NCBI GenBank assembly: GCA_023251555.1
Contig: JAHEYN010000001.1
Span: 75,433-139,432 of the forward strand
Reading direction: 5' to 3'
DNA: 64,000 nucleotides
DNA from: Bacteroidota bacterium
Lineage (GTDB): Bacteria; Bacteroidota; Bacteroidia; AKYH767-A; JAHEYN01
The translations under genes and the position numbers were made by a program. This document shows, piece after piece, positions 1 to 57,726 of the stretch (position 1 is the stretch's first letter; every line of letters begins with the position of its first letter). The notes beneath the pieces were generated by a model. The model was not told where the DNA came from. It did not search any database and was given only the letters and a program-made list of their open reading frames with translations.

Positions 1-1112
1 CCAGCTCACAGCTTTTAAAGCAATTGCAGGCTATCAGCGGTGTTTTGAACACGAGTAATCCCCTTCCTATCCTTGATAATTTTCTTTTTGATATATATAA
101 AAGTGAACTGGTTGTTTCTGCTTCGGACCTTGAAACAACCATGACTACCAGGATCTCGATTGAAGCTAAGAAAGCCGGCAGGATTGCCGTTCCTGCCAGG
201 ATTTTGCTTGATACGCTCAAAACATTTCCCGAACAGCCTCTTACCTTCAGCGTGGATGAAAGTACATTTGCCATAGAGATTGTGTCTGATAACGGAAAGT
301 ATAAACTGGCGGGGCACAACGCAGAAGACTATCCCCACATCCCGGAAGTGGCAGGCGCCAAATCGCTTGAACTGCCCGGAGCAGTACTTCTTTCTGCAAT
401 TAATAAGACAATTTTTGCAACAGGAAATGACGAGCTCAGACCTGTAATGTGCGGAGTCTTCTGCCAGATCGGGAAAGAAGCCCTGACATTTGTAGCTACC
501 GATGCACACAAACTGGCACGCTACAGGAGAAAAGACATCGCCGGGCCTGCCGAAGCCGCCTTTATTCTCCCTAAAAAACCGCTTAACCTTCTGAAAAACG
601 TACTTGGAGCCGAGGATACGAGGGTTAAGATAAATTATAATGACTCGAATGCCTTTTTTGAAGCAGGCCAAATTAGCCTGATATGCCGCCTCATAGACGG
701 GCGCTATCCTAATTACGAAGCTGTGATTCCTTCAGATAACCCCAACAAACTTGTTATTGATCGCATGGCTTTTCTTAATTCCATAAAGAGGATTTCAATC
801 TTTTCCAATAAAACAACCTACCAGATAAGGCTAAAGATTGCCGGGAGCGAATTGGAGGTTTCTGCCGAAGACCTTGATTTTTCCAATGCTGCCAATGAAA
901 GACATACCTGCCAGTATAAAGGAAGCGATATGGAAATCGGTTTCAATGCCCGCTTTCTTATGGATATGCTTTCCAATATTGATACGGCCGAGGTACTCCT
1001 CGAAATGTCGGCTCCCAACAGGGCCGGAGTACTTTTCCCTTATGGCAGCCCTGATTCCGCCAAAACCGAAGATTTGCTTATGCTCGTGATGCCTGTGATG
1101 CTCAATGCGTAA
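1..1112 (+). CDS. dnaN: DNA polymerase III beta subunit (sliding clamp), partial at 5' end. The frame is open to the window start and only a few N-terminal residues are missing.
   Basis: The N-terminus SSQLLKQLQAISGVL and the overall beta-clamp sequence pattern are visible in the translation. It is 362 aa from a TTG at 24, with no upstream stop in frame. Confidence 0.9.
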   Translation, partial: SSQLLKQLQAISGVLNTSNPLPILDNFLFDIYKSELVVSASDLETTMTTRISIEAKKAGRIAVPARILLDTLKTFPEQPLTFSVDESTFAIEIVSDNGKYKLAGHNAEDYPHIPEVAGAKSLELPGAVLLSAINKTIFATGNDELRPVMCGVFCQIGKEALTFVATDAHKLARYRRKDIAGPAEAAFILPKKPLNLLKNVLGAEDTRVKINYNDSNAFFEAGQISLICRLIDGRYPNYEAVIPSDNPNKLVIDRMAFLNSIKRISIFSNKTTYQIRLKIAGSELEVSAEDLDFSNAANERHTCQYKGSDMEIGFNARFLMDMLSNIDTAEVLLEMSAPNRAGVLFPYGSPDSAKTEDLLMLVMPVMLNA

Positions 1113-1317
1113 CTTCCTTTTGCAGGCTGGCTGCTAAGGCTTGAGCCGCTTGCAGGTACTCCCCGGTCAGAGGAGTCGTCTATGACCTAGATCATCCTAA
1201 AATATGACGGCCATCATAATCGGCGTTTTCAATTTTCATGAATTTTACAAGCGGAGAAACGGGCGACTTATCTTCAATTCCCCGCCCTGACATAAAGCAA
1301 CAGATGTAAATCTGTTA

Positions 1318-2133
1318 ATGAATGCGGCGGCGGGGTTTACCGGAGTGGTAGTTATTTCCACGCGTATGAAGGCGTGGGGCCCGCAGGATGAAAAAATAAA
1401 TATACCCCCTATGAACTCAAACAGCAAAAAAGGCCATGCCCATGCGGATTGCATGGATTGCCATTCCAGGTACCGTTCGGTATTCTGTGAACTCACCCCC
1501 GAGGAACTGGAAGAAGTGAACAGCTATAAAAGAAGCACAGTATACAAAAAAGGGCAGGTGATTTTTAAGCAGGGTTTTTACCCCCACGGGCTCTATTGTA
1601 TTAATACCGGGAAAACGAAGCTTTACCAGATGGCTGAGAACGGGAGGGAGCAGATTGTAAGAATGGCAAAGCACGGGGATGTTATAGGTTACAGGGCGCT
1701 TCTGAGCGGAGAAAAATATACGTCTTCTGCCGAAACGATTGAGGAGTCGTCTGTTTGTTTTATCCCGAGGGATTTGTTTTTTAAGTTCATCGAAAAGAAT
1801 ACGTCCATCTCTTTCCAGCTGATGAAACTGCTCTCCAGCGACCTGAAAAATGCCGAACACAAGATTACTGATCTTGCCCAGAAGCCTGTCCGGGAAAGAA
1901 TGGCAGAAGCTATCCTTTATATGAAGGAGATATATGGCCTTGAGCCTGACAATGCCACACTCAGCGTGGTTCTTACCAGGGAAGAGATGTCAAATATTGC
2001 AGGAACGGCAACTGAAACGGCTATCCGGATACTTTCGGACTTTAAACAGGAAGGTCTGGTTGAATTTGTCGGGAAGAGGATAAAGGTTGCTGACATGAAA
2101 AAGCTGCTCCAGGCGGCCAACGTGAATGATTAA
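1318..2133 (+). CDS. Crp/Fnr-family transcriptional regulator with a cNMP-binding domain and a C-terminal HTH. An N-terminal Cys cluster (CMDCHS...C) suggests an FNR-like redox sensor. The true start may be the internal Met at about 1411.
   Basis: The translation shows a cNMP-binding-like core (GQVIFKQG...GLYCINTGKTKLY) and an HTH region (REEMSNIAGTATETAIRILSDFKQEGLV). There are three Cys near the N-terminus. Confidence 0.75.
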   Translation: MNAAAGFTGVVVISTRMKAWGPQDEKINIPPMNSNSKKGHAHADCMDCHSRYRSVFCELTPEELEEVNSYKRSTVYKKGQVIFKQGFYPHGLYCINTGKTKLYQMAENGREQIVRMAKHGDVIGYRALLSGEKYTSSAETIEESSVCFIPRDLFFKFIEKNTSISFQLMKLLSSDLKNAEHKITDLAQKPVRERMAEAILYMKEIYGLEPDNATLSVVLTREEMSNIAGTATETAIRILSDFKQEGLVEFVGKRIKVADMKKLLQAANVND

Positions 2134-2136
2134 AAA

Positions 2137-2598
2137 ATGAACGCAGCGCCCCTTGTCCGGATTACCAAAACTTTTGGATTTGAAATGGCGCATGCTTTAT
2201 ATGGCTATGATGGTCCCTGCAGGAATATTCACGGGCATTCCTATGAACTTTCGCTGACAGTTTCCGGCAAACCGCTCCGGGATCCCGGGCACCCCAAGGC
2301 GGGAATGGTTATGGATTTCTCTGTGCTCAGGAGCATTGCGGAAGAGCGGGTGCTGAAACATTTTGACCATGCACTGGTTGTCAACGGGTTATCCCCGCAC
2401 CGGGAAATCAAAAACAACGGCGGCTTGTTTGAAAAGCTGATCAGTGTGGATTACCAGCCCACCTGCGAAAATCTCCTGCTTGACTTTGTTGAAAGAATCA
2501 GGCCTAACCTCCCGGAAGGTGTGTCACTTCATCACATGACGCTCAAAGAAACAGCTTCGTCCTATGCCGAATGGTTTGCTGAAGACAATAACGCCTGA
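2137..2598 (+). CDS. queD: 6-carboxy-5,6,7,8-tetrahydropterin synthase / 6-pyruvoyl-tetrahydropterin synthase family (QueD-like).
   Basis: It has the Cx5HGH zinc motif (CRNIHGHSYEL), a PTPS-like length of 153 aa, and the motif LVRITKTFGFEMAHAL. Confidence 0.8.
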   Translation: MNAAPLVRITKTFGFEMAHALYGYDGPCRNIHGHSYELSLTVSGKPLRDPGHPKAGMVMDFSVLRSIAEERVLKHFDHALVVNGLSPHREIKNNGGLFEKLISVDYQPTCENLLLDFVERIRPNLPEGVSLHHMTLKETASSYAEWFAEDNNA

Positions 2599-3952
2599 GA
2601 GCGCGCTCATTAAAAAATATAATGTCAGCGGGCCGCGGTACACGAGCTACCCCACTGTCCCTTACTGGTCTGATAATCCTTCCCGGGAGCAGTGGGCAGA
2701 AAAAGTGAGAATTGCATATAACGGGACAGCTTCCGGCCAAGGGATCAGTCTTTATATTCATCTTCCTTTCTGTGAAAGTCTCTGCACATATTGTGGCTGC
2801 AATACGCGCATAACAACAAATCACTCCGTAGAGAACCCATATATCAGGGCGCTTGCAAGGGAATGGAAAATGTACCTCGGGATTTTCGGGAGCAGGCCCC
2901 GCATCAGCGAAATTCACCTGGGAGGAGGCACCCCGACTTTTTTCAGCCCTTCGCGGCTGGAGGAACTTATGGATGAAATTCTTTCATCATCCGAGCTGCT
3001 TCCCTCTGCAGAGTTAAGTTTTGAAGCTCATCCCAACAGTACCTCGCTTACGCATTTAGAGGTATTACACCGCCTTGGCTTCAGGAGAATGAGTCTCGGT
3101 ATACAGGATTTTGACCCCCGGGTGCAGGCAATTGTGAACCGGGTACAAACCTTCGGCCAGGTTGAAAAGGTGGTTAATCATGCCAGGGCTACAGGATATA
3201 ATTCAATAAATTTTGATCTTATTTACGGGCTGCCTCTTCAGCAGGAGAGCAGTGTCGTTGGAACCATAGAGAAGGTTAACAGGATCCGCCCCGACAGGAT
3301 CGCATTCTACAGCTATGCCCATGTCCCCTGGATAAAACCCGGGCAGAGAAAGTTTACCGAAGCCGATCTTCCTGCCGATGATGTAAAACGGAAACTTTAT
3401 GAGAGCGGCAGAAGGATGCTCGAAGATGCCGGCTATACGGAAATCGGGATGGATCATTTTGCGCTCGCAACAGACGCACTGTATGCGGCTTCTGAAAAAG
3501 GAACCCTTCACAGGAATTTCATGGGCTACACTGCTTCTTATACCGGCCTTATGATAGGCCTCGGTGTTTCTGCCATAGGTGATACATGGGATTGCTTTGC
3601 ACAGAATGTAAAAAAGGTGGAAGATTATTACCGGATTTTGGAAAATGGCCGGCTCCCTGTGTTCAGGGGACATCTTCTCGACAAAGAAGATCTTGTTCTC
3701 CGAAGGCACATCCTAAATATTATGTGCAGGCTTGAAACCTCCTGGGGAAAAAATGATATGAAAGTTCCTGTTTTAGATGATTGTATATCAAGGCTTTCGG
3801 AGCCTTTATCCGACGGGCTCATTACGCTTTCCCACTCTTCCCTCCGGGTGACCGGGAAAGGAAAGGCTTTTCTCAGGAACATCTGTATGGCTTTTGATGC
3901 AAGGCTGTGGAGAAACATTCCTGCATCTGAAATATTCAGCAAAGTGGTCTGA
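2564..3952 (+). CDS. hemN: Oxygen-independent coproporphyrinogen III oxidase, a radical-SAM HemN.
   Basis: It has the radical-SAM motif YIHLPFCESLCTYCGC, HemN-like length (462 aa) and the N-terminal YNVSGPRYTSYPT motif. It overlaps the upstream gene by about 35 nt, so the true start could be an alternative codon. Confidence 0.85.
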   Translation: MPNGLLKTITPESALIKKYNVSGPRYTSYPTVPYWSDNPSREQWAEKVRIAYNGTASGQGISLYIHLPFCESLCTYCGCNTRITTNHSVENPYIRALAREWKMYLGIFGSRPRISEIHLGGGTPTFFSPSRLEELMDEILSSSELLPSAELSFEAHPNSTSLTHLEVLHRLGFRRMSLGIQDFDPRVQAIVNRVQTFGQVEKVVNHARATGYNSINFDLIYGLPLQQESSVVGTIEKVNRIRPDRIAFYSYAHVPWIKPGQRKFTEADLPADDVKRKLYESGRRMLEDAGYTEIGMDHFALATDALYAASEKGTLHRNFMGYTASYTGLMIGLGVSAIGDTWDCFAQNVKKVEDYYRILENGRLPVFRGHLLDKEDLVLRRHILNIMCRLETSWGKNDMKVPVLDDCISRLSEPLSDGLITLSHSSLRVTGKGKAFLRNICMAFDARLWRNIPASEIFSKVV

Positions 3953-4069
3953 TATCCCTGTAAAAAATCAAAAAGGGTATCAAACAATGGAGTTAAAAGT
4001 ACTTGACTCTTCCCGTTTTTTTTTCTATATTTAAAGCATGTTGAATTTTAACTTAAAACCGGTAAGATT

Positions 4070-7027
4070 ATGAAATACAATGAAAAAATTATCAGGGTTG
4101 CGGCCCTGTCTTTAGTTTGTGCATCCGTACTCCTGTTTTTCCGCGAAAAAGGAGACTCCTTTTCATCAGGAAAAACCGCACACAGTTTTGATCCGTTTGA
4201 AAAGCATGCTGCCCCTGCTTACATAAAATCCCCCCTGAAAAAACCGGGCGTGAAGCCCGGTGAAAGAAGCAATGTAAAGATGGTGGAAAACTTCTTATCA
4301 CTCCCCCTGATCTTCAGGAAGAATATGGGGCAGTGGAACCCTGACGTTTTGTTTTGCGGGATGACATCAGGGGCTTCGGTCGCTTTTAAAAAGAACGGAC
4401 TTGCTTTTTGCGCTTCAAGGGAAGATGAAACTGCAAAGCATGCTGTTTCTCCAAAGGAGAACCAGGAAGATGTGTATGAATATCTGCAGTGGGATATGAC
4501 TTTTTCCGGTGCCAGGTCATCAGTAAAAATTTATGCTGAAGGCGAAGAGGACAGCCGGACAAATTATATTTTTGGCCAGGACGCTTCAAAATGGGTGATG
4601 AATGTTCCGGATTACCGGAGACTGAGATATGACGGCATCTATAAGAATGTTGACCTGCGTTACTATGGCTTGCAAAATAACCAGCTTAAGTATGATTTCG
4701 TGGTTAACCCCGGGGGCGATATCAGGGATATCCGGCTTTCTTTTACAGGGATAGAGTCGCTTTCCCTGAATGATGCGGGAGAACTTGAGATTACAACCCG
4801 CTTTGGTGTGGTGAAAGAGGCTGCTCCTTATTCTTACCAGGCTGCCGGTGGTGTTTCTGCACCTGTGGCGGTGAGGTATGAAATTAAGGATGATGGTAAG
4901 TCTTTCGGGTTCCGGGTTGACGAACAATATGACAAGACGCTCCCGCTTGTGATTGACCCTGTCTCCCTCAAGTGGAGCACATATATGAAAGCCACCGGGA
5001 ATAACTTTAATAATTATTCTTACGATGTGGCTGTTGACGCCTCTAAAAATGTTTATATAGTGGGTAAGTGCGACAATACTTTTCCTACTACCACGGGCGC
5101 AGCATACGGCGGGTCCACCACTGATGCTTTTGTAAGCAAGCTTAATTCTTCGGGTACGGCCCTTGTTTACTCTACCTACCTTGGCGGATCCAATGTGGAT
5201 GGGGCCATGAGCGTTATGGCAAACAGCAATGGGGAGGCTTATGTGGCGGGTTACACTACATCTACAAATTTCCCCACTACTGCGGGAGTTAAGCAAACTG
5301 CCTACGCCGGAGGCTTTGGGAATGATTGTTTTGTAACCAAACTCAACAGTGCGGGAGGTATCGGGTTTTCCACCTACCTCGGGGGAGGGGGAGAAGACCA
5401 GGCATGGTCACTTTTCTTAGCCAGCGGGGGAGAAATATATCTCACAGGGTTCTCTTCTTCAGTGAATTTCCCTGTTACTGCGGGTGCCTACCAGACTACA
5501 AACGCCATGGCAGGTATGAATGATGCGATTATTGTAAAACTTAATTCCTCGGCCAGCACCCTGTTGTATTCCACCTATCTGGGCGGAGCCGGACAGGTGG
5601 TTGCATGCCCCCAGGTCGACTGCGACAATATGTTTTGTTATGACAATGTCGCCTGTACAAATTTCAATGTGCTGAATGACTGGGGCTATGGTATCTGGGT
5701 GAACTCTTCGGGCGAAGCTTATGTTGCAGGAACTACCGAATCTCCCGAATTCCCTGTTACTGCGGGTGCGAAGCAGACTGTATTCGGAGGCGGGACAAAG
5801 GACGGGTTTGCAGTAAAACTGAACTCTGCCGGCACAGCTCTTTCCTATGCTACTTTCCTCGGCGGTTCCGCTGACGATTTTGCCGCTGATGTGTATGTTA
5901 ACGGCAGCGGTGAGGCTTATGTGGCCGGCAGGACGGAGTCAGGTAATTTTCCCACTACAGCAGGCGTTTACCAGACATCGCTCGGGGGAACTTCAGACGC
6001 TTTCGTTGCGAAACTCAATGCAACGGGAACGGCTTTAACATATTCTACCTATGTTGGAAAGTCGGGCTGGGATTATGCCACGGGAATCACAGTGAATACC
6101 AATGGAGAAGCGTATATCGCCGGGCGGACACAGTCCACCAACTTCCCTACTACGAGCAATGCATACCAGGCGGCATGGGGAGGGGGGAGCTGGGATATTT
6201 TTGCCTCGGTGCTCAACTCCACTGCCTCGTCTCTTCTCTGCTCATCTCTTATGGGCGGAAATGCAGATGATTATATGACCTGCCAGCTTGGAATAGATAT
6301 TACAGGTACTGTTGATACCATATACATCAATGGTACGACACACTCGACTAACTTCCCTACCACTACAGGAGTTTACCAGGCTACCAAGCTTAATTCCACG
6401 GGAGACCAGCCTGCGCTTTTTAAGATGGCAAGCTGCACCAACTCTGTACTTCCGGTCGAATTACTTGACTTTAAAGGAAATAATAACCAGGGCATAAACA
6501 TACTGCAGTGGCGGACAGTGTCGGAAACCAACTGCAATTCGTTTACCCTTGAGAGGAGCCTGGATGGTAATTCTTTTGAGCGGGTTGGAATGGTTTCATG
6601 CAGCGGTACAAGCAGTATTCCGCATGCTTATGAGTACAGGGATGACGTCGTTTCTTTTATGACAGAAGACAATACTTTTTATTACCGCCTCCGGCAGTTT
6701 GATTATGACGGCAATTATAAATATTCCGGAACCATCGCTATTGATGTGAAGGCAAGGCGCGAACTTCCTTACGTGCTTAATGTGAGCCCTGTCCCTGTTA
6801 CGAAGGAACTGAATTTTACTTTCAACAATCCTTCTGACGGACCGCTTTCTGCGGAGATTGTGGATATTGTCGGGAAGGTAGTTTACCGGCAGGACATGCC
6901 CGCCGTAAAACGGGGAATATCCGTTTCAAAAGTTACTGTTGATTTTCTCCCCGGAGGCTTATATATCCTCAGGATTGCCCGACAGGGAAGTGCAGGGGGG
7001 AGCGGAGCAAAATTTATAAAGGAGTAA
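4070..7027 (+). CDS. Large secreted protein (985 aa) with multiple SBBP beta-propeller repeats and a C-terminal T9SS sorting domain.
   Basis: An N-terminal signal/TM segment is present. Repeated units of the form YSTYLGG..D.A..V..SGEAYVAG.T.S.NFPTTAG occur about 8 times. The C-terminal ~80 aa (…VDIVGKVVYRQDM…LPGGLYILRIA…) match the T9SS CTD pattern. Confidence 0.7.
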   Translation: MKYNEKIIRVAALSLVCASVLLFFREKGDSFSSGKTAHSFDPFEKHAAPAYIKSPLKKPGVKPGERSNVKMVENFLSLPLIFRKNMGQWNPDVLFCGMTSGASVAFKKNGLAFCASREDETAKHAVSPKENQEDVYEYLQWDMTFSGARSSVKIYAEGEEDSRTNYIFGQDASKWVMNVPDYRRLRYDGIYKNVDLRYYGLQNNQLKYDFVVNPGGDIRDIRLSFTGIESLSLNDAGELEITTRFGVVKEAAPYSYQAAGGVSAPVAVRYEIKDDGKSFGFRVDEQYDKTLPLVIDPVSLKWSTYMKATGNNFNNYSYDVAVDASKNVYIVGKCDNTFPTTTGAAYGGSTTDAFVSKLNSSGTALVYSTYLGGSNVDGAMSVMANSNGEAYVAGYTTSTNFPTTAGVKQTAYAGGFGNDCFVTKLNSAGGIGFSTYLGGGGEDQAWSLFLASGGEIYLTGFSSSVNFPVTAGAYQTTNAMAGMNDAIIVKLNSSASTLLYSTYLGGAGQVVACPQVDCDNMFCYDNVACTNFNVLNDWGYGIWVNSSGEAYVAGTTESPEFPVTAGAKQTVFGGGTKDGFAVKLNSAGTALSYATFLGGSADDFAADVYVNGSGEAYVAGRTESGNFPTTAGVYQTSLGGTSDAFVAKLNATGTALTYSTYVGKSGWDYATGITVNTNGEAYIAGRTQSTNFPTTSNAYQAAWGGGSWDIFASVLNSTASSLLCSSLMGGNADDYMTCQLGIDITGTVDTIYINGTTHSTNFPTTTGVYQATKLNSTGDQPALFKMASCTNSVLPVELLDFKGNNNQGINILQWRTVSETNCNSFTLERSLDGNSFERVGMVSCSGTSSIPHAYEYRDDVVSFMTEDNTFYYRLRQFDYDGNYKYSGTIAIDVKARRELPYVLNVSPVPVTKELNFTFNNPSDGPLSAEIVDIVGKVVYRQDMPAVKRGISVSKVTVDFLPGGLYILRIARQGSAGGSGAKFIKE

Positions 7028-7169
7028 AAATTGATTACTTCTTGAAAATATTGTAGTCGTTACAAAAGGCCATGAAAAAGTGTGGCCTGAGGAAGCTTAC
7101 TTCTTCAAGTTTTCCATAATAAATTTCTTTTATTGTGTTTTGGCAATATGAGTTTCGGTTTATTAATAA

Positions 7170-7481
7170 TTGCAATTTGTTTCTATCATAGTAAAAATTC
7201 AAAAAAAAGTAATGCAGACAATATTTTACGCATATCAATTCTATTCAGCATTAGGCCTAATTTTAGACATAATTGGCGTTTTAATTTTATTTAAATATGG
7301 ACTTCCGAGCAAAATAAAAGAGTACGGGGGAGGGCTGTTACTTGAAGAAAATTTTGAAGAAGAAAAATTGAGAGTTTCAGAAAACAAAAAGATAACTAAA
7401 CGAGCATACCTTGGTTTGAGTCTTTTATTAGCTGGTTTTTTATTTCAATTTATAGGGACATTGTTATCGGTGAACAGTTAA
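7170..7481 (+). CDS. Hypothetical small membrane protein with two predicted TM helices. The start is uncertain and may be at about 7212.
   Basis: Hydrophobic stretches LGLILDIIGVLILF and LGLSLLLAGFLFQFIGTLL are the evidence. It lies in an A+T-rich region and nothing else supports it. Confidence 0.3.
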   Translation: MQFVSIIVKIQKKVMQTIFYAYQFYSALGLILDIIGVLILFKYGLPSKIKEYGGGLLLEENFEEEKLRVSENKKITKRAYLGLSLLLAGFLFQFIGTLLSVNS

Positions 7482-7547
7482 TTTAATATCAGAAACGGAG
7501 GACAATGAAGAAAAGAAAAACGAGTGCTAACAAGGGTTTTTAATTAT

Positions 7548-7627
7548 GCGGGAGTGGATAATTATTACTATAGAGTTTCAATTGACGGGCAAGCTATTAT
7601 AAGTAAAAAAATAGTTATTATCAAGTA
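7548..7627 (+). pseudogene. 3'-terminal remnant of a fourth member of the tandem T9SS-cargo paralog family (last ~25 codons only).
   Basis: In frame it translates to …GVDNYYYRVSIDGQAIISKKIVIIK*. This is homologous to the C-termini …GVYFYELKINNASILIDKIVIIK* and …GIYFYQITIDKQAIINDKIVIIK* of the downstream paralogs. Confidence 0.45.
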
Positions 7628-8599
7628 ATGAAAAATATATGTATTTACACATCATTATTTTTATTGCCATTTCGTCTTTGGTCTCAAACCAACTTAGTAC
7701 CCAATTATAGTTTTGAAGATACTATGAGTTGCCCGTCTATTTCTAAACTTGGAATGGTAAATGTAGTTGCTTGGTACTCTCCAACAAAAGGAACTCCAGA
7801 TTATTATAATCAATGTAGCTCTACTAATTATGCCAGTATCCCTAATAATAGGCATGGAGGTCAAGTGCCTTATTCAGGGGTTGCTTATGTTGGTATAGCT
7901 ACATTTAATTTATCAGCTCAAGAATTTAGGGAATATATAGAAGTGTTACTAAATGACAGTCTTAAATCTGGTAAAAAATATCATGTAGATTTTTACTTAA
8001 GTTTAGGAGATAGTGAACAATATATTTGCAATGATATAGGAGTTTATTTTTCGAATAATTCTATTAATGCAGGTAATTATAGTGTACTGCCGTATATACC
8101 ACAAGTTAGTAATGCAAATAACAATATGTTAAGCGATAAACTAGGATGGACAAAAATTTCAAAAAGTTTTATAGCTAATGGAGGAGAAAAATACATCACT
8201 ATTGGTAATTTTAAAAATGATGCTAATTCAGATACAATGTATGTTGGAGGAGCATGGGGGTATGATGTTGCTTATTATTACATAGACGATATCTCGGTGA
8301 TAGAAGATACTGCAACTGGAGTTGGTAAGATAAGTAATGAAAAAGAAAAATATAAGATAAAACTGTATCCTAATCCAAATGATGGGGGAATGCAGTTGGA
8401 TTATAACTTATCAGAGGGACAAACAGGCGAATTGATAATTTATAACATGATGGGAGAAAAAATAAACACTTATCATTTACTAAGCTCAAAGAATAATATA
8501 AAGATAAGTGAAGCTGCCTTAAAGAATGGGGTTTATTTTTATGAATTAAAAATTAATAACGCAAGTATTCTCATAGATAAAATAGTAATTATAAAATAA
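7628..8599 (+). CDS. Secreted T9SS-sorted protein, paralog 1 of 3. It has a signal peptide, an N-terminal ~210-aa jelly-roll/CBM-like domain and a C-terminal T9SS CTD.
   Basis: The signal peptide and the NLVPN.SFED…YYYIDDISV pattern resemble CBM4/9-type modules (inference). The C-terminal ~85 aa (KIKLYPNPNDG.MQ.DYNL.EGQTGELIIYNMMGEKINTYHLL…) are nearly identical in all three copies. Confidence 0.7.
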   Translation: MKNICIYTSLFLLPFRLWSQTNLVPNYSFEDTMSCPSISKLGMVNVVAWYSPTKGTPDYYNQCSSTNYASIPNNRHGGQVPYSGVAYVGIATFNLSAQEFREYIEVLLNDSLKSGKKYHVDFYLSLGDSEQYICNDIGVYFSNNSINAGNYSVLPYIPQVSNANNNMLSDKLGWTKISKSFIANGGEKYITIGNFKNDANSDTMYVGGAWGYDVAYYYIDDISVIEDTATGVGKISNEKEKYKIKLYPNPNDGGMQLDYNLSEGQTGELIIYNMMGEKINTYHLLSSKNNIKISEAALKNGVYFYELKINNASILIDKIVIIK

Positions 8600-8604
8600 C
8601 ATTA

Positions 8605-8637
8605 AAAGCTCTCCGATTTACCGGAGAGCTTTTTTAT
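8605..8637 (+). terminator. Rho-independent terminator candidate after paralog 1.
   Basis: There is a hairpin aaagctctccg-attta-cggagagcttt followed by a T-run. Confidence 0.5.
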
Positions 8638-8643
8638 TAAATC

Positions 8644-9618
8644 ATGAAAAAGATTTTATATTTTTCATTTTTTATTTTACATTCTGCATTTTACATTCCT
8701 TCTTTTGCTCAAAACATAGTACCCAATCCAAGTTTTGAGGATACTGCTAGTTGTCCTGATAATTTAGGAGAAATCTATAGGTCGCTTTATTGGTATTCTC
8801 CAACAACAGGTTCTCCAGATTATTATAATCAATGTAGTTCTTCTGTTTATTGTGGGGTTCCAAATAATTGGTATGGAAGTCAAATACCTAACACAGGTGT
8901 TGCTTTCGTTGGGATGGGCACATTTGTATTAGGAAATACAAACCTTAGAGAATATATACAGACAGTGCTAATTGATACGCTAAAAGGAGGCAAAAAATAT
9001 AATGTAGAATTTTATGTAAGTTTATCTGATAGTTCGCAATATGCTTGCAGTAATATAGGAGCATATTTTTCTATCAATCAGGTTACGAGTGGAAATGATA
9101 AGAATTTACCCGATACTCCACAAATCAGCAATCCCCTCAATAATATCTTATCAGAAAAAATAAATTGGACAAAAATTTCGGGGAGTTTTATTGCATCAGG
9201 GGGAGAAAAATATATTACTATTGGAAATTTTAAAGATGATGCTAATTCGGACACCCTCTATGTTGGAGGGCCTTCTTGGTATACTCTTGCTTATTATTAC
9301 ATAGATGATGTATCAGTGATAGAGGATACTACGACTGGGGTGCGGGAATTCAGTAATGAAAAAGAAAGGTATAAGATAAAACTCTACCCCAACCCAAACA
9401 ATGGTACTATGCAGATGGATTATAATTTAACGGAGGGACAAACAGGTGAATTGATAATTTATAACATGATAGGAGAAAAAATAAACACTTATCATTTACT
9501 AAGCTCAAAGAATAATATAAAGATAAGTGAAGCGGCATTACAAAATGGAATTTATTTTTATCAGATAACTATTGATAAGCAAGCAATTATTAATGATAAA
9601 ATAGTCATCATAAAATAA
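8644..9618 (+). CDS. Secreted T9SS-sorted protein, paralog 2 of 3.
   Basis: It has the same architecture as 7628-8599. The N-terminal domain is diverged and the C-terminal CTD is near-identical. Confidence 0.7.
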   Translation: MKKILYFSFFILHSAFYIPSFAQNIVPNPSFEDTASCPDNLGEIYRSLYWYSPTTGSPDYYNQCSSSVYCGVPNNWYGSQIPNTGVAFVGMGTFVLGNTNLREYIQTVLIDTLKGGKKYNVEFYVSLSDSSQYACSNIGAYFSINQVTSGNDKNLPDTPQISNPLNNILSEKINWTKISGSFIASGGEKYITIGNFKDDANSDTLYVGGPSWYTLAYYYIDDVSVIEDTTTGVREFSNEKERYKIKLYPNPNNGTMQMDYNLTEGQTGELIIYNMIGEKINTYHLLSSKNNIKISEAALQNGIYFYQITIDKQAIINDKIVIIK

Positions 9619-9630
9619 ATTACAAATTAC

Positions 9631-9672
9631 GAAAGAACCTTTGATAAAACTTCATCAAAGGTTCTTCCGTTT
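9631..9672 (+). terminator. Hairpin terminator candidate after paralog 2. This is the intact version of the hairpin that is split by the IS after paralog 3.
   Basis: The hairpin is gaaagaacctttgat - loop - atcaaaggttcttc, followed by a T-containing tail. Confidence 0.45.
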
Positions 9673-9681
9673 ACAATAGGT

Positions 9682-10659
9682 ATGAGAGGAAAAAAATTTG
9701 TTATTTACTGTATATTGTTTATTGTTTGCCATTTGGCATTTTCTCAGGCTAATTTAGTGCCTAATACAAGTTTTGAAGATACTATTGGATGTCCTAATTG
9801 GGTGGGGCAAATCAATAAGGTAACTAGTTGGTACTCTCCTACAACAGGTACTCCCGATTATTATAATAAATGTTGTACTTCCACTTATTGTACGGTTCCT
9901 AATAATTGGTATGGGAATCAAGCGTCTAATGTAGGCGTTGCATACATTGGAATAATTTCATTTTCTTTATCGGCTTCACAATTTAGGGAGTATATTCAGG
10001 TACTACTAAACGATAGTTTGAAAAATGGTAGAAAATATCATGTAGAGTTTTATGTAAGCTTAGCGGATAGTATGAATTATGCTTGTAATAATATCGGAGC
10101 TTATTTTTCAGTAATACCTATTAGTAGCAATAATTATTTATATTTACCATATACACCTCAAGTAAGTAACCCAGATAGTAATTTATTAACCGATAAAATT
10201 TCTTGGACTGAAATATCAGGAAATTTTATTGCAAATGGAGGAGAAAAATATATTACGATAGGAAATTTTAAAAATGACGCTAATTCAGATACGCTTTATG
10301 TTGGGGGTCCAACATGGTCTAATGCTGCTTATTATTTTGTAGACGATGTATCGGTAATAGAAGATACAGCAGCAACAGGATTAAAGGAATTAAGTAATGA
10401 AAAAGAAAAATATAAGATAAAACTGTATCCTAATCCAAATGATGGTACTATGCAGATGGATTATAGTTTAACAGAGGGACAAACAGGCGAATTGATAATT
10501 TATAACATGATGGGAGAAAAAATAAACACTTATCATTTACTAAGCTCAAAGAATAATATAAAGATAAGTGAAGCTGCATTAAAGAATGGTGTTTATTTTT
10601 ATCAGATAACTATTGATAAGCAAGCAATTATTAATGATAAAATAGTCATCATAAAATAA
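9682..10659 (+). CDS. Secreted T9SS-sorted protein, paralog 3 of 3.
   Basis: Same architecture as the other two. Its last ~250 nt and the first ~27 nt of 3' flank are identical to paralog 2. Confidence 0.7.
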   Translation: MRGKKFVIYCILFIVCHLAFSQANLVPNTSFEDTIGCPNWVGQINKVTSWYSPTTGTPDYYNKCCTSTYCTVPNNWYGNQASNVGVAYIGIISFSLSASQFREYIQVLLNDSLKNGRKYHVEFYVSLADSMNYACNNIGAYFSVIPISSNNYLYLPYTPQVSNPDSNLLTDKISWTEISGNFIANGGEKYITIGNFKNDANSDTLYVGGPTWSNAAYYFVDDVSVIEDTAATGLKELSNEKEKYKIKLYPNPNDGTMQMDYSLTEGQTGELIIYNMMGEKINTYHLLSSKNNIKISEAALKNGVYFYQITIDKQAIINDKIVIIK

Positions 10660-10784
10660 ATTACAAATTACGAAAGAACCTTTGATTGTAAATCTTCAGC
10701 GAAAGTTGGATAATTAAAGGTAAAGAAATAAGGTGGTATTTAAAGGGAAATAGTAATTAAATTTAACCTTTAAAATCACTAAAA

Positions 10785-11132
10785 ATGAAAGACAAACAAA
10801 GTGCAAGCTCCTATGTAAGGGAGATCAAAAGAAGAACCCGCAGGAGATTTTCATCAGAAGAAAAAATAAAGATCATTATAGAGGGATTACGGGGAGAAGA
10901 CAGCGTAGCAGCTATCTGCCGTAAGTATTCGGTCCATGAAAACCTGTACTATAAATGGAGTAAAGAATTCATAGAAGCAGGGAAGAGACGTTTGAATGGA
11001 GATACTGTAAGGGAAGCAGGAAGCGATGAGGTAAATGATCTGCGTAAAGAGAACGTGCAGTTGAAAGACGCTGTGGCGGACTTGACAATAGAGAATCGTG
11101 TGCTCAAAAAAAGCTTGAATGGGCTGGAATAA
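10785..11132 (+). CDS. IS3-family transposase OrfA with HTH and leucine-zipper-like regions.
   Basis: It has the typical IS3 OrfA features (RRFSSEEKIKII…ICRKYSV…YYKWSKEF) and a C-terminal heptad Leu region. Confidence 0.85.
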   Translation: MKDKQSASSYVREIKRRTRRRFSSEEKIKIIIEGLRGEDSVAAICRKYSVHENLYYKWSKEFIEAGKRRLNGDTVREAGSDEVNDLRKENVQLKDAVADLTIENRVLKKSLNGLE

Positions 11133-11149
11133 GGGAAAGGAAAAAGCAC

Positions 11150-12157
11150 ATGAGATTCAGTCAAAGTGAAAAGATGGAAATCATCAAGATGGTTGATGGT
11201 TCCAATGTAAGTGCTAACAGGACATTGAAGGAACTGGGAATAAATCCAAGCACGTTCTACATCTGGTATAAACGGTATCTGGAGGGAGGCATTGATGCAC
11301 TTGCCACAGGCAAGAGAGAGCAGAACCGGATATGGAATAAAATACCTGTTCAGGAAAAGAACCGTGTAATTGACGTAGCCTTGGATAAGCCCGAGCTTTC
11401 TTCGCGGGAACTTGCCTGGCATATCACCGATAAGCATAAGCGATACATCAGTGAAAGCAGTGTTTATAGGATACTTAAGGAAAGAGGACTTATAACAGCT
11501 CCGGCACACATTGTTTTATCGGCCGGCGATGAGTTTGAAAAGAAAACAGGATTTGTCAATGAAATGTGGCAGATCGATTTTACTTACTTCAGGATCATTG
11601 CATGGGGTAATTATTACCTGTGTACCATTATCGATGATTATTCCCGCTTTATCGTGGCCTGGGAGCTAAAGGAAAGCATGAAATGGGACGATGCACGGTC
11701 AACAGTTGATAAGGCTGTTTTTAACACCGGATTGACACAAAATCAAATGCCTAAACTTTTATCCGATAATGGCCCCTGTTTCATTGCACATCAGTTCAGG
11801 GATTACCTGAGCGATATGGGTATCAGGCAAATTAACGGAGCTCCATTGCATCCTCAAACGCAAGGAAAGATTGAACGCTATAACAGAACGATGAAAAACG
11901 TTGTAAAGCTTGATAATTATTACAGCCCTGAAGAGCTCAAGCGGGCACTGGATGAGTTTGTTCATCATTACAACTATCACCGCTATCATGAATCGATCAA
12001 CAATCTTACCCCATCTGATGTTTTTTTTAAACGGGGAACTGCTATCATAAAACAGCGTGAAAAAATCAAACTGCAAACAATCAAAAAAAGAAAGGAGGAA
12101 TACTTCAAACTCAAACAAAAATCAACAACACAAAAAATTAACTTAACTTTGAATTGA
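11150..12157 (+). CDS. IS3-family transposase OrfB (DDE integrase core), in the -1 frame relative to OrfA.
   Basis: It has the rve-type motifs WQIDFTYF, IIDDYSRFIVAWEL and SDNGPCFIA. OrfB is in frame 2 and orfA in frame 0. An A7G run lies near the orfA end. Confidence 0.85.
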   Translation: MRFSQSEKMEIIKMVDGSNVSANRTLKELGINPSTFYIWYKRYLEGGIDALATGKREQNRIWNKIPVQEKNRVIDVALDKPELSSRELAWHITDKHKRYISESSVYRILKERGLITAPAHIVLSAGDEFEKKTGFVNEMWQIDFTYFRIIAWGNYYLCTIIDDYSRFIVAWELKESMKWDDARSTVDKAVFNTGLTQNQMPKLLSDNGPCFIAHQFRDYLSDMGIRQINGAPLHPQTQGKIERYNRTMKNVVKLDNYYSPEELKRALDEFVHHYNYHRYHESINNLTPSDVFFKRGTAIIKQREKIKLQTIKKRKEEYFKLKQKSTTQKINLTLN

Positions 12158-12200
12158 TGGCCCGAAATGCCACCTTATTTTTTAAATCAAATTCTCCAAT

Positions 12201-12980
12201 TTACCTTGAAGACGTACACCATGCTATTCTTCTACCCATTATAGGTTTACCATCACTTAGAACATGAACTGGAAAATTTGATGAGACTTTACTGATATCC
12301 AACTGTTGTTTTAATAAATAATTGACAGCACCATTTAATAACATTATAGTTTTTTCATTATAAATATCTTTTATAAATACTTTGCTTAAAAAAACTATTA
12401 CGCTTGACATTCCATGAGCAAGTCCTAAATCGCATCCTTGTATTTCTTTTTCGAAATCAATAATGGTGTTCCATTTTATTGAACCATCTTTATTTTTTAT
12501 ACTTTGTTTTTCTAATTCATCTACTAATTCTTTAATATAATTTATACATTGCTTTTTATATACCCTATTAATTAAATATACTCCGTTTCCAATTGCACCA
12601 TGAAGAAAATCAAAATTTCCATTTTTGATATCATACATCATTTTCCTATAAATAAATTCATCTAAATCATCCAAAAACAAAACATCTTCTTTCTTCATAA
12701 AATTGTTTTGAGTTAAATGCTCCATTGCCCAAGCCAAGCCACCTATTCCATCACAAAAAGTATGAAAGTTATATCCTTTGTTAATAGAGTTTAATACATC
12801 AATAATTAAATTCCGCGCTTTTTTTGCGTAAACTTCTTCTTTGATAAATTTAGAATAATAATAATAAAATAAAGCAATACCACTTTTTCCTGTTAATAGG
12901 CCAATGTTGAGATGCTCCAAATTTTCACTTTCAAGACTTTTGGTAATATTTTTCAAAGTATTTTTTAATTTGGTTATCAT
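12201..12980 (-). CDS. LanC-like (lanthionine-cyclase fold) domain protein, apparently C-terminally truncated. The reading frame runs about 15 nt into the right end of the IS and stops there.
   Basis: It has the LanC-type repeats GLLTGKSGIALFYYY, FLHGAIGNGVYL and GLAHGMSSVIVFL and ends …IAWCTSSR*, just where a WCxG motif would begin. At 259 aa it is much shorter than the ~400 aa typical of LanC. Its composition is extremely A+T-rich. Confidence 0.45.
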   Translation of the reverse strand: MITKLKNTLKNITKSLESENLEHLNIGLLTGKSGIALFYYYYSKFIKEEVYAKKARNLIIDVLNSINKGYNFHTFCDGIGGLAWAMEHLTQNNFMKKEDVLFLDDLDEFIYRKMMYDIKNGNFDFLHGAIGNGVYLINRVYKKQCINYIKELVDELEKQSIKNKDGSIKWNTIIDFEKEIQGCDLGLAHGMSSVIVFLSKVFIKDIYNEKTIMLLNGAVNYLLKQQLDISKVSSNFPVHVLSDGKPIMGRRIAWCTSSR

Positions 12981-12994
12981 TGTTTCATTACTAT

Positions 12995-14731
12995 TTATTT
13001 TCCTGTTCTTATAAACTCCAAAGCGCGTTCTGAAACTTCATCTCTATGTTCTCGAATTCCCTTGATTGTTGGCACTGCATAAATATCAGGTTTTATTCCT
13101 ACCCGTTGAGTTGGTCTTCCATTAGGATAAAAAACAGCATCGGCAGTAAAATATGTAAGAAAATTATTTTGGATAAGAAATGATACAGCTTCTCCATCAG
13201 TGCCTGAAGTATTATTTCCAACTAAATTTATTTTGTATAATGCCTTCATCCCCATAAGTGTCCATTCTTCAGCACTTTGAAGATTTTCATCAATTAATAA
13301 TACCACTTTCCCTCTATATTTTTTATGGAATGCTGGCAATCCCAATAAAAACATATATTTTTGTTTGGTCAATAAATATGTTCCCGGGTATTTCCAATTT
13401 CTAAAATAATAATTTGTAAGTTGTACATTTTTCTTATGTAATTTGGGCAATCTTAACAACACACTATACCATAACCAAACATTATCAACATTTCTAATAT
13501 CAAAAATCAGTGCTTTTGAATTTTTTAAATTTTTATATTTTTTTCTAAAATTTTTCATTGTCCCGATACCCGATAAATTTATATATCCTATTGAATCTTC
13601 TGATGAATATGTAAAATTATTTATTGCCGAACCGGTCATCCACTGTTCTTTTTCAGATAGGTTATTTAGATTAAAAGAGACAGCCTTTGTTATATTAGTT
13701 GAATCAGAAACTGTAATTGTAATATCTTTTCCTTCAGGAACAAAATGAGACATAAATATCCCGTTATCTATTTCACGATCAACGGAAAGTTGATGCGAGC
13801 AACCGCAATACTTTCTCAGATCATTTCTTATTTCATCAATAGGAATTCTATTAATTGAAAGGATTATATCACCCTGCTTTAAATTCGTTTTGACGGCAAC
13901 AAACGAATCAATGTCAGAAATTACGGTTTTATTTTCAATAAATTTTACGATAAATGGAATACTTCTCCAATCTATGTAAGATTTGAGCATGCCTACTTCA
14001 TGATTAAAATTATAATTATCATAATAACCATGACAGTCATTAATTTTTGTTATCAGTTCTGCAATTGTTGAATAAAATTTGGAACTATTTGCGCTCTCAA
14101 GTATTTTGGGAATAAATTGGTTAAGAATGTTATTCCAATTTTCATCTGTTATTTTCTTGTACGCGAAAAAATAATTTATGGCATTCCAATAACGAAAAAA
14201 TGCAAGTAAAGCATGAGCAGTATCCGGATAGTAATCACTTTCATAATAGTATTTATCTTTTCCATTTTCATCATAATATTTGTTTAATTCTCTTTTTAGA
14301 TATATATTTTTCCGCGGTTTGTAATTTTCTATTATTTCCCAAAGCAATCTACTATTATCTTTAGTAAATAAATTTTCATTATTAATCCATGAGAAATCAA
14401 AATTATTATATGATGTGTCTTGAGGTAAGTATTTGTAAGGTCTGTCAAGTTTTTTAACTCTACCCGGCAGCAAGATAAGTTGGTTAATCTTTTCATTATA
14501 CTCTTCGTTATTATTATCTATCAATATTTTGGGTATATATAAAATCAATGTTGTATCCCAATCAATTTTTCCTTTTTGAATTTCATGATGGTAGTATTTT
14601 AAATATCCCCATATTCGACATAATCCTTCAAGTTGCTGAATTTTTAGTGAATCAATAGTATAGATATTTTGACAATATATATGTAATATTGAAAAAAGAA
14701 ATACTAAAGAAATCAATATTTTTTTTTTCAT
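12995..14731 (-). CDS. S41-family (C-terminal processing/tail-specific) peptidase with a PDZ-like segment and a signal peptide.
   Basis: It has the S41-like motifs LIFDIRNVDN, VVLLIDENLQSAEEW and PNGRPTQRVGIKPDI, a PDZ-like LKQGDIILSINRIPIDEI and an N-terminal signal. Confidence 0.6.
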   Translation of the reverse strand: MKKKILISLVFLFSILHIYCQNIYTIDSLKIQQLEGLCRIWGYLKYYHHEIQKGKIDWDTTLILYIPKILIDNNNEEYNEKINQLILLPGRVKKLDRPYKYLPQDTSYNNFDFSWINNENLFTKDNSRLLWEIIENYKPRKNIYLKRELNKYYDENGKDKYYYESDYYPDTAHALLAFFRYWNAINYFFAYKKITDENWNNILNQFIPKILESANSSKFYSTIAELITKINDCHGYYDNYNFNHEVGMLKSYIDWRSIPFIVKFIENKTVISDIDSFVAVKTNLKQGDIILSINRIPIDEIRNDLRKYCGCSHQLSVDREIDNGIFMSHFVPEGKDITITVSDSTNITKAVSFNLNNLSEKEQWMTGSAINNFTYSSEDSIGYINLSGIGTMKNFRKKYKNLKNSKALIFDIRNVDNVWLWYSVLLRLPKLHKKNVQLTNYYFRNWKYPGTYLLTKQKYMFLLGLPAFHKKYRGKVVLLIDENLQSAEEWTLMGMKALYKINLVGNNTSGTDGEAVSFLIQNNFLTYFTADAVFYPNGRPTQRVGIKPDIYAVPTIKGIREHRDEVSERALEFIRTGK

Positions 14732-14774
14732 TGCATATTAAATATGCCAGTAAAGTTATAGTATTTAATTAGAA

Positions 14775-15181
14775 TAAGAATAGTATCAGGCAAATTAACG
14801 GAGCTCCATTGCATCCTCAAACGCAAGGAAAGATTGAACGCTATCACAGAACGATGAAAAACGTTGTAAAGCTTGATAATTATTACAGCCCTGAAGAGCT
14901 CAAGCGGGCACTGGATGAGTTTGTTCATCATTACAACTATCACCGATATCATGAATCGATCAATAATCTTACCCCATCGGATGTTTTTTTTAAACGGGGA
15001 ACTGCTATCATAAAACAGCGTGAAAAAATCAAACTGCAAACAATCAAAAAAAGAAAGGAGGAATACTTAAAACTCAAACAAAAATCAACAACACAAAAAA
15101 TTAACTTAACTTTGAATTGATGACCCGAAATGCCACCTTATTTTTTAAATCAAATTCTCCAATTTACCTTGAAGACGTACA
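14775..15181 (+). mobile_element. 5'-truncated second copy of the same IS3-family element (3' ~400 bp only: the orfB C-terminus plus the right IR).
   Basis: The sequence is near-identical to 11820-12218. The orfB C-terminal 103 aa are identical apart from an H/N and an L/F substitution, and the same right terminus …gaagacgtaca is present. Confidence 0.8.
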
Positions 15182-15208
15182 ATTAGTAATTACCGACTGA
15201 CACGGGCC

Positions 15209-15595
15209 ATGAAAAAGTATTTTCTTTCTGTTCCTTTGTTTATTGCGGCTTCTCTCTTCATTATCTCCTGTAAAAAAAACGGGACCGGGGGGGAGGCTGT
15301 TGTTACTGCATCCGTTAAACACCACGATAAAAATATTTACGGGGCCACCGTTTACCTTAAGTTTAATGCAAAAGAGATGCCATCCGATCCCGCCGTTAAT
15401 TATGATCTGAAGCTTACGGCTGACTCAGCCGGGGAGCATGTGCATTTTAAAGGGCTTTTGTACGGTAATTATTACCTGTATGGGCGGGGCTACGACAGTT
15501 CTATTGCACAGACTGTTAGCGGAGGTATTCCTTTGAAAATAAAATGGAGTGAAAGGAAACAGGAGATTGAAGTGACTGTACCGGTAACGGAATAA
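15209..15595 (+). CDS. Hypothetical lipoprotein.
   Basis: It has a signal peptide with a lipobox (…LFIISCKK) and is small (128 aa). Confidence 0.5.
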   Translation: MKKYFLSVPLFIAASLFIISCKKNGTGGEAVVTASVKHHDKNIYGATVYLKFNAKEMPSDPAVNYDLKLTADSAGEHVHFKGLLYGNYYLYGRGYDSSIAQTVSGGIPLKIKWSERKQEIEVTVPVTE

Positions 15596-51024: not shown

Positions 51025-51100
51025 TTAATCCGCCTTTGCGTTCCGCTACGGCGGACAAGAGGGTCCGGGGCCTGCCCCGGGGTTAATACCAATTTATTAA
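51025..51100 (+). repeat. Palindromic intergenic repeat element, copy b, between the convergent purB and peptidase genes.
   Basis: ttaatccgcctttgcgttccgctacggcggacaagagggtccggggcctgccccggggttaataccaatttatt. Confidence 0.75.
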
Positions 51101-56756: not shown

Positions 56757-56873
56757 TTTAATCCGCCTTCGCGTTCCGCTACGGCGGACGGGAAGGCCTG
56801 GTTCAATTCCCCGCAGCTTGCTGCGGAAATCTGAGTCCGGAACTTGTTCCGGGGTTAAGACCAATTTATTTAA
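56757..56873 (+). repeat. Palindromic intergenic repeat element, copy c, with a ~35-bp internal insertion carrying an extra hairpin.
   Basis: ttaatccgccttcgcgttccgctacggcggacgggaaggcc-[tggttcaattccccgcagcttgctgcggaaatctgag]-tccggaacttgttccggggttaagaccaatttatt. Confidence 0.7.
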
Positions 56874-57650: not shown

Positions 57651-57726
57651 TTTAATCCGCCGTAGCGGAACGCTACGGCGGACGAGAGGGTCCGGGGCTT
57701 GCCCCGGGGTTAATACCAATTTATTT
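57651..57726 (+). repeat. Palindromic intergenic repeat element, copy d, with the best-preserved palindromes.
   Basis: ttaatccgccgtagcggaacgctacggcggacgagagggtccggggcttgccccggggttaataccaatttatt. This gives two perfect hairpins, ccgccgtagcg/cgctacggcgg and ccgggg/ccccgg. Confidence 0.8.

Follow-up and report, generated by a model that had tools for sequence, protein, structure and literature searches.

An IS3-family element at the break of a half hairpin behind a T9SS paralog, and its probable part in joining that hairpin to a lanC remnant in a low-GC island of a Bacteroidota bacterium

How does a hairpin that stands complete behind one gene come to be cut in half behind its tandem paralog, with an IS beginning at the cut and a broken, unrelated gene lying against the far end of that IS? 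The question is raised by a 64-kb stretch of DNA from a Bacteroidota bacterium (referred to here as the window, meaning the whole stretch that was analysed), which is part of a metagenome contig of 476,781 bp (assembly ENA ERZ27297570, deposited at NCBI as well). Searches covered the 64-kb window and public collections, and the reality of the junctions was checked independently with Logan contigs (k = 31) from run SRR14366766. In what follows, we describe the hairpin and its half copy, the IS and its two ends, the sequences that lie beyond the right end, and the sequence of events that best explains how they were brought together.

The tandem T9SS paralogs and their hairpin

Three tandem genes encode products of about 324 aa, all three of which carry a type A C-terminal sorting domain (Pfam 1e-10 to 3e-11; TIGR04183 cut-off exceeded). 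The genes and the 3′ flanks on which the comparison is built are the following:

7628-8599: T9SS cargo paralog 1 (Pfam Por_Secre_tail, TIGR04183)
8644..9618, + strand: T9SS cargo paralog 2, 324 aa, with a C-terminal type A sorting domain (Pfam Por_Secre_tail 3.5e-11, TIGR04183)
9628..9670, + strand: intact terminator-like hairpin behind paralog 2, taken as the model of the native structure (first arm 9631-9645, loop 9646-9653, second arm 9654-9667)
9682..10659, + strand: T9SS cargo paralog 3, 325 aa (Pfam Por_Secre_tail 2.5e-11)
10660..10686, + strand: 3′ flank of paralog 3, a copy of 9619-9645 with the whole first hairpin arm (10669-10686) and no loop; the 95-nt identity ends at 10686

A frame at about 7540-7627, ending GVDNYYYRVSIDGQAIISKKIVIIK and a stop codon, resembles the last approximately 25 residues of a fourth T9SS paralog, the remainder of which is absent; its stop codon overlaps the ATG of paralog 1 (TAATG).

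The 3′ flank of paralog 2 reads ATTACAAATTACGAAAGAACCTTTGAT-AAAACTTC-ATCAAAGGTTCTTCCGT. As RNA, it folds into a 13+3-bp structure of -19.5 kcal/mol, with z = -6.5 against dinucleotide shuffles and none of the 200 shuffles equally stable. Paralogs 2 and 3, whose proteins are 70% identical and whose stop codons are located at 9616-9618 and 10657-10659, respectively, align without gaps at 100% identity over 95 nt (9551-9645 = 10592-10686), including 27 nt past the stop, and the identity is lost at the very next base. From 10687 onward, the paralog 3 flank continues with TGTAAATCTTCAGCG, the left end of the IS, and the break falls exactly at the boundary between arm and loop. A preliminary description of this DNA had recognized a clean hairpin behind paralog 2 and the same 27 nt after both stop codons; the fold bears out the first observation, and the alignment enlarges the second to 95 nt.

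The second arm, ATCAAAGGTTCTTC, was sought across the 64-kb window with up to two mismatches, and its sole site is the one behind paralog 2 (9654-9667), two further matches being the reverse complements of the two first arms. It lies beside neither 12218 nor 15181, the two positions at which an IS right end is found, as had been reported earlier. Exact-pattern scans of JGI metagenomes returned no hits for the second arm with its downstream sequence and none for the IS right end.

To call the hairpin a terminator is our reading of its sequence. Intrinsic, Rho-independent terminators combine a stable, GC-containing stem-loop with a U-tract directly behind it on the transcribed strand. Here the stem is stable, and on the plus strand, the tail is CGUUUACAAU, with just UUU past the stem, and a consensus terminator scan accepts the minus strand only. 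The ATG of paralog 3 (9682) lies 11 nt past the end of the folded structure (9670) and 14 nt past the end of the second arm (9667), a spacer too short for a promoter. Paralogs 2 and 3 therefore probably share one transcript that includes the hairpin, and this speaks against a strong terminator. If paralog 3 relies on upstream transcription, the 11-nt gap to its start implies that the hairpin is no complete stop. Its possible roles are those of a partial or a bidirectional terminator, or of a 3′ stem-loop with a stabilising effect. Read-through from paralog 3 into the IS, a predicted effect on transcription, is plausible because orfA has the same orientation as paralog 3 and the hairpin is destroyed. 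The orphan first arm can pair with positions 10710-10721 inside the IS, forming a junction-spanning hairpin (10678-10721; -13.9 kcal/mol, z -3.6) that is probably fortuitous and to which we attach no function. Rfam and tRNA scans found no RNA genes in the window.

The IS3-family element and its ends

The element that begins at the break is full-length, and its coding content is arranged as follows:

10687..12218, + strand: full-length IS3-family IS, 1,532 bp (self-BLAST, alignment of the inverted repeats, homologous ends in relatives)
10785..11132, + strand: orfA, 115 aa, HTH_Tnp_1 (Pfam PF01527 8.2e-13)
11106..11113, + strand: A7G slippery run within the 85-nt overlap of orfA and orfB, a putative -1 frameshift site from which a 457-aa OrfAB is predicted (frame analysis, fused translation)
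11150..12157, + strand: orfB, 335 aa from the first ATG (gene callers: 11174), DDE/rve transposase (Pfam rve 3.4e-23)

Members of the IS3 family have imperfect inverted repeats ending 5′-TG...CA-3′ and a length of about 1.2-1.55 kb (ISfinder), and they generate a target-site duplication of 3-5 bp. Their orfA and orfB overlap, with orfB in the -1 frame and an A-rich slippery motif within the overlap, and they transpose by a copy-out/paste-in route via a circular intermediate. The terminal inverted repeats of the present element are imperfect, TGTA...TACA, reading TGTAAATCTTCA... on the left and ...TGAAGACGTACA on the right, and agree at 22 of their first 29 nt. The orfB frame is the -1 frame relative to orfA and is open from 11048. 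OrfB also matches Pfam rve_3 (5.1e-14) and passes the NCBIfam transpos_IS3 model (171 bits, cut-off 160). Its score is higher against the transpos_IS481 model, at 214.2 bits, yet below the cut-off of 224; an assignment to the IS481 family, whose members have a single transposase ORF without frameshifting, was rejected on this ground and because the element has its own HTH_Tnp_1 orfA, overlapping orfB in the -1 frame. The nearest transposases share approximately 55% identity in GTDB genomes and approximately 50% among annotated plasmid proteins, where they carry the label 'IS3 family transposase'. We classify the element, whose GC content is 39.5%, as a new, previously unnamed member of the IS3 family, to which the preliminary description had already attributed it. 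No further copies of the exact transposase were found in the collections, the single contig being its only source, and in protein clusters at 90% identity, OrfB is represented by the full protein and an 88-aa fragment only and OrfA by one member.

A scan of GTDB with OrfB retrieved a related IS of 1,465 bp from several Bacteroidota metagenome-assembled genomes (MAGs), with approximately 55% protein identity to the window element and 93-94% DNA identity among its own copies. Six left ends of the related IS, in unrelated flanks, all start TGTA(G/A)ATCGTCAGC, and four right ends all finish GACGACGTACA; the positions homologous to these ends are 10687 and 12218. The insertion point had earlier been placed at 10687 to the nucleotide, and this placement is upheld by the paralog comparison, by the element's own inverted repeats, by its second copy and by the related ends; inverted repeats extending upstream of 10687 are contradicted by the six related copies, which begin at the homologous TGTA. 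At the right end, the sequences that follow GTACA in the two window copies are unrelated (CCATGC... vs ATTAGT...). The MAGs that carry the related 1,465-bp IS (loci L007-L009, L011, L012, L014 and L016) are assigned to Flavobacteriales, Chitinophagales and Bacteroidia, and an identity of 93-94% across MAGs of different Bacteroidota orders suggests a recent horizontal spread.

The 3 nt next to the copy at 10687-12218 are GAT at its left end and CCA at its right end, with no target duplication, the flanks being non-contiguous. A target duplication is likewise not visible in any of the three related copies for which both ends were available on MAG contigs, so that a missing duplication is, by itself, weak evidence.

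Each junction recurs in the independent assembly. The Logan contigs are 100% identical to the window and end exactly 30 nt into each repeat, with the following spans:

70-8360: across the host/island GC boundary
10657-11849: contig L017, across the hairpin/IS junction
12189-14812: across both ends of the block formed by the truncated lanC-like gene (lanC′) and the S41 peptidase gene
15152 onward: from the right end of the second IS copy

The junctions of the second IS copy (14783 and 15181) are crossed by contigs L001 and L002. Since the Logan contigs span all four junctions, these junctions exist in the reads. L017 begins 30 nt outside the IS and reaches IS nt 1163 without a branch, which means that the IS has a single left-end context in SRR14366766.

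Beyond the right end: lanC remnant, IS fragment and low-GC island

Three features lie to the right of the full-length IS:

12219..12980, - strand: lanC-like gene, truncated at codon 254 of about 396 (Pfam LANC_like profile positions 4-222 of 350)
12995..14731, - strand: S41-family peptidase, 578 aa, upstream of lanC′ (Pfam Peptidase_S41 2.3e-15)
14783..15181, + strand: 5′-truncated second IS copy, 399 bp, IS nt 1134-1532, in the same orientation and 98.5% identical to the full copy

The open reading frame of the truncated lanC extends from 12201 to 12980, its final six codons and its stop at 12201 being IS sequence. Full-length relatives measure 392-413 aa, and tblastn homology to them ends at residue 255-256, at 12216, that is, at the end of the IS. 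In the closest relatives (L003-L006), a lanB dehydratase gene directly follows lanC; neither lanB nor the 3′ part of lanC was found in the 64-kb window, from which the combination of full-length LanC and LanB that identifies a class I lanthipeptide cluster is absent. Judged by its sequence, the lanC′-S41 block is the remnant of a dead class I lanthipeptide cluster, with no functional cluster predicted. One flank of the IS is a broken lanC and the other the hairpin of paralog 3, without a duplication between them; the two sides therefore come from two places, and at least one rearrangement beyond simple insertion is required. A rearrangement after the insertion had been proposed in the preliminary description, and the lanC homology that stops at the IS end, together with the missing target-site duplication, speaks for it. 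The same description had counted two IS right ends, of which 12218 does end a full IS, whereas 15181 ends the 399-bp 5′-truncated copy and not a complete element.

This second copy differs from the full one by six substitutions, two of them non-synonymous, one of which turns the conserved ERYNRT into ERYHRT. Its right end, 15181, is the final base before DNA of host-like GC content, and a precise right end combined with an internal left break-point points to a further, independent deletion. The left break-point, internal to the IS, lies 51 nt upstream of the S41 peptidase start, a distance so short that the operon may have lost its promoter region. The window contains one IRL and two IRRs only, and no solo inverted-repeat remnant was found at the left border of the island described below. 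A composite transposon with the IRL at 10687 and the IRR at 15181 as its outer ends was considered and rejected, because its flanks, TGAT and ATTA, have no 3-5-bp duplication in common and the hairpin does not continue on the right.

All of these features are contained in a block of approximately 8 kb, from about 7030 to 15181, whose GC content is 27-30% compared with 44-47% in the remaining window, and which comprises the fourth-paralog remnant, the three paralogs, the IS, the lanC′-S41 remnant and the IS fragment. This low-GC island was probably acquired horizontally. A 14-nt direct repeat, GGCCATGAAAAAGT, occurs at its two edges:

7068..7081, + strand: left copy, at the GC drop that opens the island
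15205..15218, + strand: right copy, 23 nt past the IS fragment, overlapping the start codon of a 128-aa gene

The repeat, which was noticed post hoc, may mark the island boundary or be a chance match between common MKK gene starts; the ATGAAAAA sites of the window, true repeats excluded, contain no second pair that agrees at all of these 14 nt. Window scans detected no integrase or tRNA gene at the island borders. No uninterrupted locus or empty site was found in the collections, where the best identities were 49% for paralog 3, 54% for lanC′ and 44% for the 985-aa host neighbour. Elsewhere in the window, a family of GC-rich intergenic repeats of 74 nt is present at 51025-51098, 57652-57725 (91%) and 56758-56831 (61%). 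These repeats hold two short palindromes, CCGCC..GGCGG and CCCCGGGGC..GCCCCGGGG, have no Rfam match and may represent shared terminators or elements of the REP or MITE type.

History of the locus

The locus is probably the product of an IS-associated deletion that followed the insertion and joined the hairpin to lanC. The IS would have transposed into a single site, either lanC or the point where arm and loop meet in the paralog 3 hairpin, and a deletion would then have run from the IS to the other site, so that the hairpin may have received the original insertion or may be where a deletion ended that had begun from an insertion in lanC. The deletion could have been an adjacent deletion made by the transposase or the outcome of homologous recombination with a second, directly oriented copy; as both routes lead to the same end product, they are inseparable here. 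The lost DNA would comprise the loop and second arm, the last approximately 140 codons of lanC and probably lanB; its extent is what we infer rather than see, since the searched collections hold no uninterrupted relative, and parts of the genome beyond the 64-kb window searched could contain the second arm or the 3′ end of lanC. In a separate deletion, the older IS copy at the right edge of the island would have lost its first 1,133 bp. A convergent arrangement, in which paralog 3 and lanC faced each other across the hairpin and only about 0.4 kb was lost, is unlikely, given that the relatives have a lanB after lanC that is missing here.

A precedent is available in IS150 of the IS3 family, for which adjacent deletions without target duplications are common and recombination between two copies is also documented (PMC11708052). 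The IS150 adjacent deletions of the Escherichia coli long-term evolution experiment resemble the present case in the layout of OrfA and OrfB with a -1 frameshift, the rve (DDE) transposase and the TG..CA ends, and also in the non-contiguous flanks, the missing target duplication and the truncated neighbouring gene. Unlike in IS150, the OrfB of the window has N-terminal HTH domains of its own and scores higher against the IS481 model, although below its cut-off, and the deletion is deduced from a paralog comparison and not from an ancestor.

Recombination between two full copies of the IS, inserted in the hairpin loop and in lanC, respectively, could instead have produced an inversion or a translocation, leaving a reciprocal hybrid IS elsewhere; in that case, DNA outside the window would still contain the second arm and the 3′ end of lanC, with an IRL or IRR beside AAAACTTCATCAAAGG. 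The mismatched flanks and the absence of a target duplication are compatible with such an exchange, and the comparison within the genome is limited to the window. We nevertheless regard it as unlikely, since a reciprocal product would require another full copy of the IS in a different left-hand context, whereas L017 is unbranched across the left junction, the protein collection (MAG, ENA and Logan assemblies) contains no second transposase at least 90% identical, and the window has the single IRL noted above for its two IRRs.

It is very unlikely that the order of the segments is an assembly artefact, in which the 399-bp segment shared by the two IS copies was mis-phased, the true order being paralog 3, IS and host DNA (15182 onward), and the lanC′-S41 block with its 399 bp forming a separate circular or tandem molecule or belonging to another strain. 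The source is a metagenome, and the k = 31 graph offers two ways into the shared segment and two ways out of it, which makes another pairing formally possible. However, the six sites that differ between the copies, located between IS nt 1196 and 1474, are at most 101 nt apart, and the outermost of them lie within 62 nt and 58 nt of where the shared segment stops, a spacing that allows ordinary reads to phase the two 399-bp copies, and each segment of the graph is used once in the assembled path. Under the alternative pairing, moreover, the second arm would still be absent after the IS, which would continue as ATTAGTAATT..., and the half hairpin would stand unaffected.

The position of the junction, exactly at the loop base, could also be taken to mean that the IS targets stem-loops in the manner of IS1397 and ISKpn1, which target REP loops, so that its placement at the arm/loop boundary would be structure-directed and not due to chance; IS3-family members inserting into palindromic units are documented (PMC1525189). 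The likeness to IS1397 and ISKpn1 in REP/BIME sequences (PMC1525189) consists of an IS3-family end inside an intergenic palindrome. The window hairpin differs in being no dispersed repeat, as it occurs only behind paralogs 2 and 3, and in having lost the second half of the palindrome, and it is a single case, with just one informative junction. The reconstructed target sites of three related copies show no hairpin across the insertion point and no common motif in their flanks, hence no hairpin preference among the relatives, and the opposite end of the same IS sits in a coding sequence. Since the hairpin occupies most of the 63-nt intergenic spacer, a hit there is not improbable, and structure-directed targeting is, in our judgement, highly unlikely. 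The bolder idea of a stem-loop-seeking Bacteroidota IS3 member that inserts at the loop bases of terminator-like structures, the loss of the terminator coupling transposase expression to read-through from upstream, is a long shot.

Finally, capture of the IS in a single step at the double-strand break of a forming hairpin-lanC deletion, without a target cut made by the transposase, is highly unlikely: movements of IS5 and IS481 without target-site duplication, coupled to large deletions or duplications, have been proposed (PMC11708052) and OrfB scores high against the IS481 model (214 bits), but the end state would be the same as that of a two-step adjacent deletion, and 14 of 14 IS150-associated deletions were resolved as two-step (PMC11708052).

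An insertion followed by an IS-associated deletion thus remains our preferred reading, and it places the locus among the low-GC islands that decay through IS activity, with which it shares accessory genes, gene fragments and, in this instance, one IS and one IS fragment. Unlike typical islands of this kind, the block has no integrase or tRNA gene at its borders and is bracketed only by the 14-nt direct repeat. As regards method, an IS junction can be reconstructed from an internal paralog, and the break-points of independent unitigs can be used to count the contexts in which an IS occurs. For annotation, the analysis provides base-precise ends for an unnamed IS3-family element, marks the adjoining lanC reading frame as a dead fragment and identifies paralog 3 as a gene without its 3′ hairpin. 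The phenomenon itself is already known, the IS-driven erosion of a horizontally acquired island being ordinary genome decay, and it would pose a new question only if the IS proved to be hairpin-preferring.
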